Positions 3,111 through 11,377 of a stretch of 11,521 nucleotides of DNA are shown here, one piece after another; position 1 is the stretch's first letter, and the number at the start of each line of letters is the position of its first letter. A program made the translations under genes and the position numbers. The notes under the pieces were generated by a model. It saw only the letters and a list, made by a program, of their open reading frames with translations, did no database searches and was not told the origin of the DNA. The DNA is taken from IMG/VR virus record IMGVR_UViG_2657245124_000008. One strand, given 5' to 3'. Source of the DNA: a virus (taxonomy: Duplodnaviria > Heunggongvirae > Uroviricota > Caudoviricetes).

Positions 3111-3137
3111 ATGATACCGCATTATTCCATTTTGCAA
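3111..3137 (-). promoter_or_regulatory. candidate sigma70 promoter for ogr
   Basis: Read on the minus strand: -35-like TTGCAA (3132-3137) and -10 TATCAT (3111-3116) with a 15-16 nt spacer, about 35 nt upstream of the ogr ATG. This is a by-eye match only. Confidence 0.3.
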
Positions 3138-3163
3138 ACTTAAAAGTTCTCCATTGCGAAGAA

Positions 3164-4264
3164 TCATTCCATTTCGAAATCATCAATCTTCACTTCGAGT
3201 TCAATACTGGTTGTAAAACCGTTATCCGGGCTGACGGTATGTGTCAGAGTCGTAATGGTCCATTCCGCATCATCTATCGGCTGTTTAAAACCACTGACCT
3301 TCACAGGCATTTCCGTGTAGAGATCTGCCCGCCCTTCTGCCAGTTGTAGCGAAAATGACGCAACGCCGCGTTGCAGGCGTTCCCACTGCATTTTCGCCGC
3401 TCGTTCGGCGTTGCTCCGGTTGGCATAAGTGCGATTAAGTACCAGCACGTTTTCATCCGTACCCACCAGGTAATCGCCCTGCTTCGCTTCTGGCTCTTTC
3501 TTCTGCTTCTTAGTTCTGCGCTTACGCTTCACCGTGGTGCTTTCTTTCTTCGCAGGTTCGCGGGTATGCAACCAGCTGGCAATTACGCCCGTGTAGGCTC
3601 CGCGATCTGCCAGGGTAAATCGGTGACTGTCGCCGTCCTTGCGTGTGATAGTGATCACTGGCAGAGGTTTACCAGTGACGCTTTTGCCCTGCCCCTGCCG
3701 GATGAATAACAGATTGCCATTTTTCACCGACGCGATGGCACCGTATTGTCGCGCCAGCCGCATCAGAAAACTGCCGTCACTCTCATTAGTCTGGTCTATA
3801 TGCTCCACGGGCTTATCCGACAGGTCTTTACCCAGTGCCATCTTCAGCTTGTGCCGCGCGGCTATTTCCTTCACCACTTCCCCGACGGTGGTCTTATGCC
3901 ACGATTTTTCACGGCGGGTATTCAGCGTTTCCCGAAAATCAGCACTTCGCGCCCGGATAGTCAGGCGGTCCGGTGCGCCAGTGTGTTCAATCTCGTCCAC
4001 TGTGAATGCCCCTTTCGGGAAAAGCAGCTGCCCCTTCCAGCCCAGCGCCAGCGTAATGACCGCACCACGGCGCGGCAGCACGATTTTTCCGTCAGCGTCA
4101 TCCAACTCCAGATCAAGCTGGTCCGCTTCAAAGCCCCGGTTATCCGTCAGCGTCAAACTCATCAGGCGGTTATCCAGCACTGTGGTGATATCCCTGCCCT
4201 CAATACTGATGCTGAATGCGGGAGTTTTGTTGCCTTTGTTAAGCAGTTCTGAGCTGAAATTCAC
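3164..4264 (-). CDS. D: P2 gpD-like tail protein (366 aa)
   Basis: 366-aa product with recognisable similarity to P2 gpD, sitting immediately after U and before ogr as in P2. The start is GTG at 4264, overlapping the U stop (GTGA). Confidence 0.85.
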   Translation of the reverse strand: MNFSSELLNKGNKTPAFSISIEGRDITTVLDNRLMSLTLTDNRGFEADQLDLELDDADGKIVLPRRGAVITLALGWKGQLLFPKGAFTVDEIEHTGAPDRLTIRARSADFRETLNTRREKSWHKTTVGEVVKEIAARHKLKMALGKDLSDKPVEHIDQTNESDGSFLMRLARQYGAIASVKNGNLLFIRQGQGKSVTGKPLPVITITRKDGDSHRFTLADRGAYTGVIASWLHTREPAKKESTTVKRKRRTKKQKKEPEAKQGDYLVGTDENVLVLNRTYANRSNAERAAKMQWERLQRGVASFSLQLAEGRADLYTEMPVKVSGFKQPIDDAEWTITTLTHTVSPDNGFTTSIELEVKIDDFEME

Positions 4265-4746
4265 GACAGCAGCCCTCCCACCGTTTTACTGATATCGCTT
4301 AAGGCAGACGTTGCCGTGTCCTGCAGATTATTCAGTTGCGCACTGAGATCACCGAACATATCGGACAGGGATTCATCCACTCGTTTGAGCGACAGGGTGA
4401 ACTCAATCCGGCGCGGCATACCGTCGCGGAAAAACTCCGTTTTAGTCTGATTCAGTCCCTCAATCACATACATGCCGTAAATCGTGCCGCTGCCTTCAAT
4501 CAGGGGCCATGCTTTCCCCTGTTCTGCCATCTGCTCCAGTGCCAGCAACGACAGCCTGCCGCCTGTTATCTCCGGCATAAGAACACCGGAAAGCGTCAGC
4601 ATGTCGTTTTCCGGTCCCAGAAACTGCGTGGACGGACGTCGGTTTACCCGACTGTTTGCCGCATGTCGCCAGCTGCGTTGATACTGCAGTTCCTGATACG
4701 GAACGGTGCGCAGCATAAACACGTACAATCCCAGCACCATCATCAT
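4261..4746 (-). CDS. U: P2 gpU-like tail protein (161 aa)
   Basis: 161-aa product, similar in size and sequence to P2 gpU (about 159 aa from memory). Its ATG overlaps the T stop (ATGA), indicating translational coupling. Confidence 0.85.
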   Translation of the reverse strand: MMMVLGLYVFMLRTVPYQELQYQRSWRHAANSRVNRRPSTQFLGPENDMLTLSGVLMPEITGGRLSLLALEQMAEQGKAWPLIEGSGTIYGMYVIEGLNQTKTEFFRDGMPRRIEFTLSLKRVDESLSDMFGDLSAQLNNLQDTATSALSDISKTVGGLLS

Positions 4747-7700
4747 GCGTCGTATCCCCCCTGATCGCTGTAGTTACTCCTGGCTTTTGCCTTCAGCCTG
4801 CGTTCACGTTCATCAAGCTGGCGTGCCACCTCCCGCGCAATATCCTGCGCACTTTGTCCTGGCTGCGTCTGAATGATGATCTGCGTCGGTGCCTCAATCC
4901 GTTGAACGAGCGGCACAGTGGCTGCGCGACTCACAATTGCTTCTCCACCTTTCGCGGGAAGTGCCAAAGGGTGCAACGGTGGAAGCTCTGCTGGCGCGGC
5001 AGCAACGCCCATCATTCCGGCAACAACGGCAGCCAGTGCAGCTGTATTTCTCCGGCTGGTCACATTTGCCGGGCCGTTAACAATTTCCGGCCCGTTTTCA
5101 CCGACGATGCCAAACTGCCCGCGCGGGATATACCCGCCGCTGTCATACATCCCCGCAAAGCCATATCCCCATGATGGAAAACCACCCGATGGCATCATCA
5201 CTTTGCCGTCTGCATTCACCGTCGCAGGTTGCTGACGCGTCACGCTTTCCGGTAGTTTTGCCTTTGCGGCCTCTTTACTGACAATGCCGAGTTTCTCCAG
5301 CAACCAGGAAACGCCGGATTTCAGGGAGTCCAGCGGATGCATGACCATATTCAGCCCTTCCGCCAGAGCCTCCCCGAATCGTCGCCCCATTGCCGCTGCA
5401 CTCTGCAGTTCGGCAGAGGTCGACTTAACGGGCGTCAGCAGGTCAGTAAACCAGCCCCACAGCGCCTGCACTTTGTCGCCAATCCACTGGAACACAGGCT
5501 TAAGTGGTTCGAATGCGGCACTGACGGGACCTGCCGCCGCTTTGAATCCCTCCACCACGCCACCGAGAAATGCGGTGATGGGTTGCCAGTATTTCCAGAC
5601 AACCAGCGCCACGCCTGCCAGTGCAGTAACCACTAGACCTATCGGACTGAGCAGAGCACCTAACAGACCAGATATGGCATACAGGGCAACGCGCAGCATC
5701 GCCAGTGGACCAGATGCCAGTACTCGCTGCACCGTACCTGCGGCGGTCAGTCCACCGCGCAGTACCGCCAGAGGATTCATAAACATCACAGCAACCGCAC
5801 GTAAACCGGATAATCCAGACCGCAAAAGTGCAACCGGCGCACCTGCAACAGTTTTCAGGACATTTCCCGTCAGTGATGCCGTACGGCGCAAAGACGACAA
5901 CGGCGCAGTAAGTAAACCCGCTGCGTTACCCGATAAAGCAAGCCCGTGTCGCAGCAGTGCCAGTGGTGCGCCAGCCAGCCAGGACAACGCGCTGCTGGTT
6001 CGTGTTACTGCTGCCGTAACGGAAGGTAACGTTTTGATGCCCAGCACAGAGAATCCCAGACGGATGACTGCCAGCGGCCCCAGCACTGCAGCCAGCGCCA
6101 CAGCCAAGGTGCCGAGGCCGACGGTAACCGCAGCCACAATAGCGGCTACTTTCATCAGTGTGCCCGTCAGTTCCGGGTTAGCTTCCACCCAGCGACGCAA
6201 CGCTCCCGTAACGCTTTTCACCGTGTACAGAATATCCATCAGCGGCTGGCGCAGCGTTTCGCCCAGGCTGCTGAAGGTATTCTGCGCTCCGGTTTTAACC
6301 AGCAACCACTGAGCAGAAAGTGAGTCCTTGTTGATGTCGGATTCTTTCTGCATGGAACCGAGCGCATCATTGCCCGCTGTCAGTTTTAGCTGGCGCTGTA
6401 GTTCCGGCAGGTTGTTTGCCAGTTTCGCCGCGTCATCGCCAAACTCTTTACCAAACAACATGGTCATGGCAGACAGACGCTTGTCCTGCGGCAGTGCGTT
6501 CACCTTCTCCAGCACACGCTGGATAGTTCCCATCGCATCCTTCGTCATCTGCTTTTCAATCACTTCAGGATTGAGTTTCAGCAGATTCATCCCTTCAAAG
6601 AAACTCTTGCTTTGCATGGTGGCAATGGACAATTCACGCACCATCGCGTTTGCTGCACTGGCTGCAACCTCCGGCGCAGCGCCCAGTGTCAGAAAGGTGG
6701 AACCCAGTGCCGCCGCTTTACGATAATCCAGACGGTCAGCCACACCGCCCAGACGTTGCATCACATCAATGATGTCCGCCCCTTTCGACATGGCGTTATC
6801 ATCCAGATAGTTCAGCGCATCGCCGAGCTGTTCAATATTGCGGGTAGGTATTTTGTAGAGCTGGGCGATTTTCCCCAGACTTTCTGACAGTTCATCCGCT
6901 GGCAGCTCAAAGGCTGTTGCCGCCTTTGCTGCCGTACTGGCGAAGGCCAGCAGGTCACGTTTCTGGTCTTCCCAGCTGTCGTCAGGGTCTGCGACGTTCA
7001 TGCGCGCACCACCTTCAACCAGTGCAGCGAAGTCCACCGCACCGTTTTCCATCGGCAACTGTTCGCTGGCAGCCTTGATGGCATCCTGCATTTCATAAAA
7101 ACGTGCAGTACGGTTTCCATTATCGTCACGCAGACCATTGACCTGCTTTGCCACACCTTTCATGGCATCTTCCATGCTGGTATAGCTTTTTACTGCCGCC
7201 ATCACTGGCGTCCCCATTGCCAGCCCTGCAGCCGTGGTAGTGGCTCCGGCTCCTGCAATACGATCGCGCACCTCCAGCGAACGGGCATAACTGGCACGCG
7301 CCGCATTCATCCTGCGCTGAGCTTCACCCAGTCGCTTCAGCCGCGCCTCCTGTTTCGACAATTCCTGGTTATAACGTGATGTTTCACGGGCTAAACGGGC
7401 AGTTGCTCCCGCATCATCTTTCGCAGAAATTCCCGCCCGGTACAGTTCTGCACGCACAAGCGCCGTTTGCTTCTGCAAATATTTTTGTTGTTCTTCCAGG
7501 CGTTGGACTGCCAGCGTTTGCCGACCTAAAGCCACAAGGTGCCGTTGTGATGGTTGTTCCATCGCCTCCAGCTCAGAGCTAAGCAAATTAGCCTTCTGTC
7601 TGGCATAGTTCAGCCTGTCGCCTAACTTCTTGTTATCGGCCTGCAGCTTGCGAAATTTTTCCAGGCTGTTACCCGCCTGATTGAGTTGCTTTAATGCGTC

Positions 7701-7820
7701 ACGGGAGTTTCTGATTGCACCAGCCAGCTCTTTCGAACTGGCCTGTGCAGCACGGAATGGGCGGGTGAGTTTGTCAACCGCATTAAGAATGACCTGCAGG
7801 CGCAGGTTGTTATCACTCAT
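4743..7820 (-). CDS. T: tail tape measure protein (gpT-like, 1025 aa)
   Basis: Long ORF with a coiled-coil-like, Q/R/K/E/A-rich N-terminal region, a central Ala/Gly/Leu-rich hydrophobic repeat block, and a position between E/E' and U. All are typical of tape measure proteins. Confidence 0.9.
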   Translation of the reverse strand: MSDNNLRLQVILNAVDKLTRPFRAAQASSKELAGAIRNSRDALKQLNQAGNSLEKFRKLQADNKKLGDRLNYARQKANLLSSELEAMEQPSQRHLVALGRQTLAVQRLEEQQKYLQKQTALVRAELYRAGISAKDDAGATARLARETSRYNQELSKQEARLKRLGEAQRRMNAARASYARSLEVRDRIAGAGATTTAAGLAMGTPVMAAVKSYTSMEDAMKGVAKQVNGLRDDNGNRTARFYEMQDAIKAASEQLPMENGAVDFAALVEGGARMNVADPDDSWEDQKRDLLAFASTAAKAATAFELPADELSESLGKIAQLYKIPTRNIEQLGDALNYLDDNAMSKGADIIDVMQRLGGVADRLDYRKAAALGSTFLTLGAAPEVAASAANAMVRELSIATMQSKSFFEGMNLLKLNPEVIEKQMTKDAMGTIQRVLEKVNALPQDKRLSAMTMLFGKEFGDDAAKLANNLPELQRQLKLTAGNDALGSMQKESDINKDSLSAQWLLVKTGAQNTFSSLGETLRQPLMDILYTVKSVTGALRRWVEANPELTGTLMKVAAIVAAVTVGLGTLAVALAAVLGPLAVIRLGFSVLGIKTLPSVTAAVTRTSSALSWLAGAPLALLRHGLALSGNAAGLLTAPLSSLRRTASLTGNVLKTVAGAPVALLRSGLSGLRAVAVMFMNPLAVLRGGLTAAGTVQRVLASGPLAMLRVALYAISGLLGALLSPIGLVVTALAGVALVVWKYWQPITAFLGGVVEGFKAAAGPVSAAFEPLKPVFQWIGDKVQALWGWFTDLLTPVKSTSAELQSAAAMGRRFGEALAEGLNMVMHPLDSLKSGVSWLLEKLGIVSKEAAKAKLPESVTRQQPATVNADGKVMMPSGGFPSWGYGFAGMYDSGGYIPRGQFGIVGENGPEIVNGPANVTSRRNTAALAAVVAGMMGVAAAPAELPPLHPLALPAKGGEAIVSRAATVPLVQRIEAPTQIIIQTQPGQSAQDIAREVARQLDERERRLKAKARSNYSDQGGYDA

Positions 7821-8249
7821 CGTTGGCCCCGCTTCTCTGAATCGCTTTATACCGCCATTCCAGCACTTCGGTCAGCGGCATAACGTCAGTAACGGATGGC
7901 GGCCAGTGAAAAATGGTGGCGATATCTGCCACCAGATCGTCAACCGTCAGGCTGTCGGTAAACCGGCAAGCACCGACTTCTTCAACAAAAAAGTGACAAC
8001 CTCAACCGACATGGCTGTGAGATCTGCCGGGTCCATCTCTGCGATTTCCTGTGCAGTCAGTGCCGGACTGGAGATGCGGGGGATCACGGTCATCATCGCG
8101 TTCACATCCATATCCATAATGGCCTGCAGGCGTGTGCCGCGCAGCGCACCAGACTGCGGTTTACGCAACACAATTTCGGTAATTTCTGTTTTACCGCGCA
8201 TGATGGGGGTATCCAGTTGAATGGTCTTTTCAGTCTGTTTATCGCTCAT
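7813..8249 (-). CDS. E+E': gpE+E' tail assembly chaperone made by programmed -1 frameshift (about 144 aa)
   Basis: Translating by hand from the slippery site in the -1 frame gives an open frame running to a TGA at 7813-7815 (…VEEVGACRFTDSLTVDDLVADIATIFHWPPSVTDVMPLTEVLEWRYKAIQRSGANDE*). It overlaps the T start codon at 7820. The total length is close to the 142 aa I recall for P2 E+E'. Confidence 0.65.
7947..8249 (-). CDS. E: tail assembly chaperone gpE (100 aa, zero-frame product)
   Basis: Small ORF between FII and T. Its 3' end contains the slippery heptamer T TTT TTG. The ATG at 8249 is preceded by an AGGAC Shine-Dalgarno-like sequence. Confidence 0.8.
   Translation of the reverse strand: MSDKQTEKTIQLDTPIMRGKTEITEIVLRKPQSGALRGTRLQAIMDMDVNAMMTVIPRISSPALTAQEIAEMDPADLTAMSVEVVTFLLKKSVLAGLPTA
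7986..7992 (-). other. -1 programmed ribosomal frameshift slippery heptamer TTTTTTG
   Basis: The minus strand reads GTC ACT TTT TTG TTG AAG (V T F L L K) in the E frame. The heptamer T TTT TTG matches the P2 E/E' and lambda G/GT-type slippery sequence. Confidence 0.7.
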
Positions 8250-8303
8250 TTTGTTGTCCTGTAAATTAGGTTCTGGCGCGGCATTCCGCGCCGTTCAGAT
8301 ACA

Positions 8304-8819
8304 TCAGAGGCCGAGGGCGTTGCGGTGCGCTTCCATCAGGTCCACACCGTCCACAATTTCCACCATGTTGATAAGGTCCACTTCATAGAGCACCTCACCA
8401 TTGATGGTCAGCTTCGCGTAGCTGTTGGTACTGGTAACTTTGGTGGTGTTGCTTTCGCCCGTCTTCCACTCGCCGGAATCCACTTCTTTGTGACGTCCAC
8501 GCACGACAAGCTCCACGGCCTGCACTTCCCCAGTATCGTCACGCTGGATAGAGCCGGTAAAGCGCAGCTGGATGCCATCCACCGTGGATTTGCCCATCTG
8601 CTTAAACAGCAGCAGTTCAGTACCACCAATGGAAAATTCTGTATCCAGTGCACTGTCATCCAGTCCCAGATCCACATCCACCGCCCCCGGCATACCGCCG
8701 CCGCGATACTTCTCATATTTGCGGGTGAATTTCGGCAGCGTCAGCGACTCAACGATCCCCTGCCAGTTGTTCCCGTCGTTAAACAAGTTCAGATGTTTTA
8801 ATTTGCGTGGTAAAGCCAT
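8304..8819 (-). CDS. FII: tail tube protein (gpFII-like, 171 aa)
   Basis: 171-aa product similar in size and sequence to P2 FII (about 172 aa from memory), directly downstream of the sheath gene. Confidence 0.88.
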   Translation of the reverse strand: MALPRKLKHLNLFNDGNNWQGIVESLTLPKFTRKYEKYRGGGMPGAVDVDLGLDDSALDTEFSIGGTELLLFKQMGKSTVDGIQLRFTGSIQRDDTGEVQAVELVVRGRHKEVDSGEWKTGESNTTKVTSTNSYAKLTINGEVLYEVDLINMVEIVDGVDLMEAHRNALGL

Positions 8820-10001: not shown

Positions 10002-10077
10002 AGTGGCGAACCTCCTGATTGGATTAGGCTTCGCCCTATGTTGAAGTGATTGTGCCTGACAAACAGCTAAGCGCAGT

Positions 10078-10095
10078 TGTACCGTTATTCATACA
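10078..10095 (-). promoter_or_regulatory. candidate Ogr-dependent late promoter element (TGT-N12-ACA) upstream of FI
   Basis: TGT (10078-10080), a 12-nt spacer, then ACA (10093-10095). The dyad centre is about 85 nt upstream of the FI ATG, which fits an activator site near -55 with a roughly 30-nt leader. The -10 region is not confidently identified. Confidence 0.45.
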
Positions 10096-10143
10096 AAATG
10101 ACGGTATTTGTCTACTTGCAGGGATAATCAAAATAATGCTGAT

Positions 10144-10566
10144 TCAGGGGGATTCATTGCTCTTATTTGCCGGAAATTTTCTATACATGGTAGAAACGCC
10201 TACATCAAAAATCAGTGCAATACGCTGTCTTGATTCTCCGGCCTCGAGTAAACGCCCAATCTGTGCCCACTGTTCGGTGGTCAACTTAGGACGGCGTCCA
10301 CCTACTCTGCCTTTAGCACGAGCTGCAGCCAGCCCTGCCCTAGTACGTTCGACAATAAACTCTCGCTCCATTTCAGCCAGGGCACCCATCACATGAAAGA
10401 AGAAGCGCCCCATAGGCGTACTCGTATCGATGCTATCCGTCAGGCTCCGGAAGTTAACACCTTTCTCCCGCAGTTCCTCCACTAACCCAACAAGATGTCG
10501 CATGCTGCGACCGAGGCGGTCACGCTTTCAGACCACCAGCGTATCGCCTTCAGATATGCATCCTTG
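10144..10566 (-). pseudogene. Pin/Hin/Gin-family serine DNA invertase, N-terminally decayed
   Basis: The 119-aa ORF (10144-10503) matches the C-terminal two-thirds of Pin/Hin-type invertases (MRHLVGLVEELREKGVNFRSLTDSIDTSTPMGRFFFHVMGALAEMERE..., with the C-terminal helix-turn-helix). Upstream in the same frame, homology continues as ...EGDTLVV*KRDRLGRSM, with a TGA (10528-10530) where the conserved Trp of GDTLVVWKLDRLGRS sits. A TAG follows at 10567-10569 and no recognisable catalytic N-terminal domain is found in any frame. Confidence 0.8.
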
Positions 10567-10666
10567 CTAAACTTAGATCGCCGGTCACCAACTAAGCATG
10601 CAGTATGCGTTATGTTTTTTATTGCTCCCAGGGTAATGTGTCCACTAACTAAACAAGGAGATAGTG

Positions 10667-11218
10667 ATGCTGCATACTATGAATTTCACGGTGCCCGTAA
10701 ATCAGTCCACCGTTAACGCTTTAATTAGCAATTGCCTTGGAGCTATCAATCAGGGGGCGACTGAGTTAAACATTTACATTTCCAGTCCGGGCGGTGACCT
10801 CGTTGCAGGTTTTACTGCTTATCACTTTCTAAAGGCCCTACCAATCCCAGTAAAGACCCATAACCTTAGCAATGTTGAATCAGTCGCTAATATCATTTTT
10901 CTTGCAGGGTCTGAACGTAAGGCGAATCCTGGGAGTCGGTTCTTACTGCATCCTTTTCACTGGGGCTTGATGGGCCCAAGCGTGGATCACTCACGCGTCA
11001 GTGAGTGGGGCGCGTGTCTCAATAATGACCTGGAGCGTTTTGTCGATATTTTGGAGAGTCAGATTGAGCTCAGTAAGAGCCGCAATGAGTGGAAGGAGGT
11101 TATCTCCGCCGCCACCATAGCCAATGCCTCCACAGCTCTGGATTGGGGGATGGTTCACGAGGTTGCCGCCGCCACTTACCCGCAGGCACCCGGCACATAC
11201 TGGTGGATTAACTGTTAA
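10667..11218 (+). CDS. stand-alone ClpP-like (S14-type) serine peptidase, about 183 aa
   Basis: AAGGAG Shine-Dalgarno (10655-10660) lies 6 nt before the ATG at 10667 (the ORF track begins at an in-frame GTG at 10664). The product aligns by eye to the ClpP core: IYISSPGG versus ClpP YINSPGG, Ser72 in ESVAN versus ClpP GQAASMG, and His95 in LLHP versus ClpP MIHQP. It lacks the ClpP N-terminal axial segment and is oriented against the late operon. Confidence 0.7.
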   Translation: MLHTMNFTVPVNQSTVNALISNCLGAINQGATELNIYISSPGGDLVAGFTAYHFLKALPIPVKTHNLSNVESVANIIFLAGSERKANPGSRFLLHPFHWGLMGPSVDHSRVSEWGACLNNDLERFVDILESQIELSKSRNEWKEVISAATIANASTALDWGMVHEVAAATYPQAPGTYWWINC

Positions 11219-11377
11219 CATAATTACCTCTCAAATTTAAATTGGGCAGAGATGCCAGCATCCAGGCTCGCGCCTGGACGATTGTCTGATGATGAAAAGT
11301 GCAGTTTAATCTGTGGCTGGATTATCTGGATGCACTGGAGCTGGTTAATACCTCCAGTGCGCCAGATATTGAATGGC

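Follow-up and report, generated by a model that had tools for sequence, protein, structure and literature searches.

Gene content of the prophage end

The stretch of DNA analysed here (hereafter the window; 11,521 nucleotides) is a segment of an E. coli chromosome, and differs from strain 1297KP (NZ_CM173856.1) by only three SNPs in its 11,521 bases. The window carries the host genes grxA, ybjM and ybjL together with the small RNA gene rybB; one end of a P2-like prophage comes after these. The whole prophage was examined in the near-identical 1297KP genome (L168 below, coordinates as in the window), in which it spans ~34.5 kb between rybB/ybjL and rcdA, and encodes 186-type CI, CII, Fil and Int as well as a complete late gene set. 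Its nearest sequenced phages are the Elveevirus/Felsduovirus-type phages of Klebsiella and E. coli (Cartapus, 4LV2017 and the Kp48xx series), with 92-96% DNA identity.

All prophage genes from the ogr homologue through FI are encoded on the minus strand. They are listed below with their Pfam matches, and the genes from D to FII are assigned also from the RefSeq annotation of the near-identical genome:

3074-2856, minus strand: ogr/B homologue, 72 amino acids (Ogr_Delta)
4264-3164, minus strand: D, F operon (Phage_GPD)
4746-4261, minus strand: U, F operon (Phage_P2_GpU)
7820-4743, minus strand: T, tape-measure gene, F operon (PhageMin_Tail)
7932-7813, minus strand: E', F operon (RefSeq annotation)
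8249-7947, minus strand: E, F operon (Phage_TAC_7)
8819-8304, minus strand: FII, F operon (Phage_tube)
10001-8829, minus strand: FI, tail sheath, first gene of the F operon (Phage_sheath_1, 114 bits)

The FI protein of the window is 68% identical to that of P2, and the RefSeq annotation of the near-identical genome agrees with this assignment. The remainder of the F operon spans 3164-8819 on the minus strand. Within T, a segment of ~370 nt (7279-7646, minus strand) gave no blastn match to Cartapus, and its flanks are 94-95% identical to that phage; the segment is a local replacement inside the gene.

The prophage end adjoins rybB (2700-2793 region, plus strand), which was detected with 105 bits at 2700-2778 and was the only match of the Rfam scan. 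The sequence ATGGGTTTTTTGTT..CT.AAATTTAT, which overlaps the terminator of rybB, is repeated imperfectly and in direct orientation at the opposite end of the prophage (L168 37290-37318). Because the repeat is found at both ends and overlaps the terminator, the sequence suggests that the phage integrated at the 3' end of rybB.

Beyond FI lie a truncated DNA-invertase gene (10557-10144, minus strand), a ClpP-like ORF on the plus strand and remnants of tail-fibre-assembly genes. The invertase, a member of the Gin/Hin family, is a pseudogene: its first 51 residues, including the catalytic-serine region, are gone, homology to the Cartapus invertase begins at residue 52, and the frame is interrupted by an internal stop. 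Thus, the tail-fibre inversion switch of the prophage is dead. The ClpP-like ORF (10664-11218), a putative moron, would encode a stand-alone serine peptidase of 184 amino acids, and sits between the tail-fibre-assembly remnants and the invertase remnant, at the place of the alternative tail-fibre segment. It matched Pfam CLP_protease with 48.8 bits and phrog_94 with 96.6 bits, fell under every NCBIfam cut-off, and seems by eye to retain the Ser and His of ClpP. Neither this ORF nor the invertase remnant was matched in a PADLOC scan, a megablast search of 10557-11300 among phage records returned no match, and a search of the P2-hotspot papers gave nothing relevant on Clp, Ogr or the late promoter. 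The same ClpP-like/truncated-invertase module was found in another prophage remnant, which adjoins dacD in E. coli BR1220 and others.

A dyad and candidate promoter parts upstream of FI

The earlier note on this DNA had proposed an Ogr-activated late promoter upstream of FI, pointing to an exact TGT-N12-ACA at a suitable distance from the ribosome-binding site and start codon of the gene. A pattern search of the window recovered the dyad at 10078-10095; it reads TGTACCGTTATTCATACA on the plus strand and TGTATGAATAACGGTACA on the minus strand, the direction of FI. Between its centre (10086.5) and the FI ATG downstream (10001) there are 85.5 nt, which bears out the claim on distance, as the corresponding figures are 82.5 nt in P2 and 81.5 nt in phage 186. 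The placement upstream of FI was also right, but the note left unstated the minus-strand orientation of both FI and the promoter. The dyad lies directly upstream of FI-FII-E-T-U-D, at the head of the late morphogenetic operon, and this position is syntenic with those of P2 PF and 186 pJ. The parts recognised in this region are as follows:

10078-10096, minus strand: predicted binding dyad of an Ogr/B-type activator, (T)TGT-N12-ACA (exact match, conservation, and synteny with P2 PF and 186 pJ)
10061-10066, minus strand: weak -35-like hexamer CTGTTT (2/6 match to TTGACA; only T10065 and G10064 conserved)
10038-10043, minus strand: -10-like hexamer CAACAT (invariant A10042, A10039 and T10038; fixed, ungapped distance from the dyad)
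10029-10031, minus strand: predicted transcription start, A10031 being likeliest (7 nt after the -10-like hexamer; A in 22/25 clusters of related loci)
10011-10016, minus strand: ribosome-binding site of FI, AGGAGG (read from the sequence)

The two hexamers are separated by 17 nt. The -35-like hexamer is poor, with only its TG conserved, and the -10-like hexamer, in spite of its invariant A, A and T, is itself weak (3/6). CAACAT aligns with GAAAAT of P2 PF and GACAAT of 186 pJ, and its last base is 48.5 nt from the dyad centre versus 49.5 nt in P2 PF. Since the -10-like hexamer is poor, the start point can be given only as a prediction: a start near A10031 would place the dyad at about -55.5 and leave a leader of ~30 nt. 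A scan for sigma-70 consensus promoters detected no stand-alone minus-strand promoter at the dyad region, as is expected for an activator-dependent promoter, and found a plus-strand site, which is described below.

To what extent the sequence of the dyad is informative depends on its background frequency. TGT-N12-ACA occurs five times in the window versus 3.26 times expected, a count equalled or exceeded in 43 of 200 shuffles, and eight times in the 34.5-kb prophage versus 8.4 expected. As the pattern is not enriched, the bare six-base match occurs at chance frequency and is no evidence alone; the case rests on position and conservation. These counts are what one would anticipate if the dyad were a chance pattern and FI transcripts came from elsewhere, either by read-through out of the V/tail-fibre operon upstream or from a different promoter, and read-through is conceivable inasmuch as the invertase remnant and FI share one strand. 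The comparisons among phages given below bear directly on this alternative.

The dyad could also be seen as the hairpin of a terminator, in RNA or DNA, for the upstream invertase or tail-fibre transcript, because the inverted repeat comes just past the stop codon of the invertase remnant (10144). Nevertheless, the repeat consists of 4-5 A/T-rich pairs around a 10-nt interior, and has neither a G+C stem nor a T run. When folded, 10050-10143 does no better than shuffled sequences (z = 0.15), the changes in the N12 among relatives are not compensatory, and a terminator scan found nothing at 10060-10110 while detecting three terminator-like sites elsewhere. We regard a terminator as extremely unlikely.

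Comparison with P2, 186 and related viral contigs

The late promoters of P2 and 186 provide annotated references for the dyad in the window. According to the RefSeq record of P2, the activator site of PF occupies 17555-17583, transcription starts at 17626-17628 and the ATG of FI is at 17652; the dyad there is TGT-N12-CCA, and its centre (17569.5) precedes the ATG by 82.5 nt and the start by 56.5-58.5 nt. In the record of 186, the B-protein site of pJ is at 14091-14110, the transcription start at 14159 and the ATG of the sheath gene at 14183, and the dyad is again TGT-N12-CCA, its centre preceding the ATG by 81.5 nt and the transcription start by 57.5 nt. The dyad shared by P2 PO and PP lies 55.5 nt, and that of PV ~56.5 nt, from the record-annotated starts, and the annotated start of PV coincides with the start codon of V. 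Altogether, dyads fall between -55.5 and -58.5 relative to the starts given in the two records (P2 PO/PP, PV and PF; 186 pJ). The four late promoters of P2 have been summarised as Ogr-dependent and as sharing a common TGT-N12-ACA, and Ogr as a zinc protein with the arrangement C-X2-C-X22-C-X4-C (PMC3931495). Set beside the PF, PP, PO and PV sites of P2, a comparison that the earlier note had recommended, the dyad of the window occupies the homologous place, and the P2 starts fall 55.5-58.5 nt from their dyads.

The likeness to P2 PF is not restricted to the dyad. In both phages (i) the element is upstream of FI, the dyad centre preceding the ATG by ~82 nt and the start, which is a predicted one in the window, by ~56-58 nt, (ii) a poor -35 is combined with an A-rich -10 at the same offset, (iii) the left half is similar (TTGTG/TTGTA), and (iv) the gene of an Ogr-family activator lies beyond D. 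On the other hand, the right half-site is CCA in P2 PF and the exact consensus ACA in the window, the dyad and the -10-like hexamer are 1 nt nearer to each other in the window, and its predicted leader measures ~30 nt versus ~25 nt in P2. The upstream neighbour is fun(Z) in P2 and an invertase remnant in the window, and the activators are 51% identical. In 186, pJ is at the same place before the sheath gene J, and the prophage of the window has 186-type CI/CII/Fil control genes. The two differ in that pJ carries CCA, not ACA, that the terminator t45 is found just upstream of pJ where the window has the remnant of an invertase gene, and that B is 54% identical to the activator of the window. 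When up to one mismatch to TGT-N12-ACA is allowed, the dyad of the window is exact, and the reference sites of P2 and 186 each deviate at one position; the dyad thus matches the published consensus better than the PF and pJ sites do.

Closer counterparts are found in Fels-2 and the Elveevirus phages (Cartapus and Klebsiella phage 4LV2017), in which an exact TGT-N12-ACA is centred 81.5-85.5 nt before the ATG, together with a (G/C)AACATA -10 region; these sites are not annotated in the corresponding records and are predicted from sequence alone. The dyad of Cartapus differs from that of the window by one base, and Fels-2 has the exact dyad at 81.5 nt with the same AACATA -10 region. phiCTX has a dyad resembling TGT-N13-ACA instead, and the N12 rule is therefore not universal across P2-like genera.

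We then compared the window with 80 IMG/VR viral contigs (L005-L084), in which FI is at least 90% identical. The exact TGT-N12-ACA was present in all 81 loci, the window included, centred 78.5-85.5 nt before the FI ATG, although these loci are of common ancestry and the counts are not fully independent. Among the 80 contigs, the N12 occurs in dozens of versions, and both the flanks and the upstream genes differ: the upstream neighbour is either the 3' end of an invertase gene, sometimes overlapping the dyad, or a terminator-like GCGGGGATTTTTTT. A dyad retained exactly at 81 of 81 loci within an 8-nt positional range, despite diverged inner 12 bases and flanks, is not what a chance pattern would leave, and the synteny with the annotated activator sites of P2 and 186 also argues against chance.

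To view conservation base by base, the related loci were reduced to 25 clusters (<85% identical) and aligned in an ungapped, dyad-anchored profile. The TGT and ACA columns are the anchor of this profile, and their invariance restates the 81/81 count rather than adding independent evidence. Outside the anchor, the T preceding TGT (10096) is invariant in 25/25 clusters, as are A10042, A10039 and T10038 of the -10-like hexamer. G10064 is kept in 25/25 and T10065 in 24/25 clusters, making up the 'TG' of the -35, while the rest of CTGTTT varies; A10031 is kept in 22/25, and the remaining columns average ~0.5 bit. The fourth base of the dyad in the window is A (TGTA), as in PV of the same prophage, the commoner base being G (20/25 clusters). 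Across the clusters, the distance from the dyad to the -10 is constant, and that from the -10 to the ATG ranges over 7 nt. Such fixed spacing is the signature of a promoter with an activator held on one helix face relative to RNA polymerase.

A second set comprised 79 P2-group loci (L087-L166) with 63 distinct sequences upstream of FI. TGT-N12-CCA was found in 62 of the 63, centred 80.5-82.5 nt before the ATG; the remaining one, L157, gave no match even with one mismatch allowed. Both the P2 group and the group of the window have TGTG(c/t)CAT as the left half. The right half-site of PF, in turn, is lineage-specific, being CCA in the P2/186 group and ACA in the Elveevirus/Felsduovirus group (81/81 loci). 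Co-evolution with activators that are ~50% diverged could account for this split.

The same data bear on whether a regulator other than Ogr recognises the dyad, such as host CRP, a phage repressor, or the neighbouring DNA invertase through a crossover site or enhancer. Class I sites of CRP resemble the element of the window in that a symmetric TGT...ACA lies upstream of a weak -35 and activation proceeds via the alpha-CTD, albeit CRP belongs to another protein family. The half-sites of CRP, TGTGA-N6-TCACA, correspond to TGT-N10-ACA, and all 81 loci adhere strictly to N12. As for the invertase, the remnant of the Gin/Hin-family gene ends only 49 nt off; however, many relatives keep the dyad with the terminator-like GCGGGGATTTTTTT in place of an upstream invertase, and the local invertase is a pseudogene. 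A Gin/Hin crossover site, which is a 26-bp imperfect palindrome at the flank of an invertible segment and goes with an active invertase, was considered and rejected: the dyad is 3' of the invertase gene and not at a segment border. Recognition by another regulator is further countered by the recurrence of the motif at the V and O/P late operons (see below) and not at early or immunity genes, and we consider it very improbable. The operator of PpsR/CrtJ in purple bacteria has an identical written consensus, TGT-N12-ACA, but PpsR/CrtJ is an unrelated repressor of unrelated organisms, and the agreement is a notational coincidence.

Other late operons and the activator gene

In the complete prophage of L168, exact dyads recur at the other late operons. 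The dyad at 15944-15961 is centred 55.5 nt before the V ATG, and its geometry is the leaderless one annotated for P2 PV. The O/P intergenic region has another, at 21852-21869, whose centre precedes O by 87.5 nt and the ATG annotated for the terminase by 55.5 nt. The 352 nt of three late intergenic regions thus contain three of the eight matches in the prophage (Poisson P ~1e-4). Common to PF, PV and PO are ttTGT(a/g)t...ACAa and, at one offset, gCAAC(a/c)T, PV and PO having gCAACCT(T/A) at the -10 offset of PF, and the same three sites are present in Cartapus. Recurrence at V and O/P at P2-like distances, taken together with the 81/81 positional conservation, excludes chance for practical purposes, and we hold a fortuitous pattern with read-through into FI to be extremely unlikely.

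In L168, the annotated ATG is at a distance of exactly 55.5 nt both for V and its PV dyad (15897-15961) and for the terminase large subunit and the P side of the O/P dyad (21852-21927). From these distances, leaderless mRNAs are predicted for both genes, as annotated for P2 V. Alternatively, the terminase start may be mis-annotated in L168, given that P of P2 has a 23-nt leader.

The putative trans-acting partner of the dyad is encoded next to D. The 72-aa protein (3074-2856, minus strand) matched Pfam Ogr_Delta (PF04606) with 78 bits against a cut-off of 26.3, and retains an intact zinc-finger motif, C-X2-C-X22-C-X4-C. Its identity is 51% with P2 Ogr, 54% with 186 B and 100% with the Ogr/Delta activator of the Klebsiella phages 4LV2017 and ST512-KPC3phi13.2. 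On these grounds, we presume that the protein acts at the dyad. The ogr gene invoked by the earlier note is therefore real. The note's further claim of a complete late regulatory circuit is supported only by the full prophage in the near-identical 1297KP genome, the window alone being insufficient to judge it.

In the intergenic region between D and ogr (3126-3173, minus strand), we noticed three copies of AATGGA in 48 nt around a possible ogr promoter, TTGCAA-N18-CATTAT. The equivalent promoter of 186, pB, carries CI operators. The AATGGA copies may be repressor sites or may have arisen by chance.

A probable equivalent of PF and pJ in the Elveevirus/Felsduovirus lineage

Based on the above results, the dyad at 10078-10095 is very probably where the activator binds at the late promoter of the F (tail) operon, the equivalent of P2 PF and 186 pJ. 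Every prediction of the Ogr-activated reading that can be computed, namely position, conservation, recurrence and an activator gene, holds. We infer the binding, the start point and the activator dependence from sequence. During lytic growth, the Ogr/B-type zinc-finger protein would bind (T)TGT-N12-ACA at about -55.5 and thereby bring sigma-70 RNA polymerase to core elements (CTGTTT, a 17-nt spacer and CAACAT) which are too weak alone. In P2, Ogr contacts the alpha subunit of the polymerase at its C-terminal domain. From near A10031, transcription would then proceed through FI, FII, E/E', T, U and D, and probably on into ogr.

It is worth considering whether the single dyad works in both directions, like the shared PO/PP site of P2. 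On the plus strand, the promoter scan detected a sigma-70-like site, TTGTCT-18-AATAAT, at 10108-10137, whose -10 is ~45 nt from the dyad centre and mirrors PF as PP mirrors PO. No plus-strand gene occurs for ~520 nt past this site, and a weak terminator-like hairpin lies at 10213-10227. The plus-strand site is possibly a chance occurrence in A+T-rich DNA, and we think a bidirectional dyad unlikely. If the dyad were bidirectional, an Ogr-activated leftover promoter at this site would give a late antisense transcript over the invertase remnant, possibly to the ClpP-like gene at 10664-11218.

Regarding the dyad as the activator site of a minus-strand PF/pJ equivalent, the motif is an ordinary and well-understood phage control element, and the promoter is orthologous to those of a textbook class, in a prophage lineage that is common though uncharacterised. 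Two small refinements may be drawn from it: PF carries the full consensus ACA in this lineage while the P2 and 186 lineages fix CCA, and the spacing from the dyad to the -10 is invariant while the leader length drifts. Neither of them challenges the present understanding of Ogr-type activation, and their import beyond annotation is little. What is gained is that the F-operon late promoter and its parts can now be marked in this prophage, as well as in many relatives from Klebsiella and E. coli that lack such annotation.
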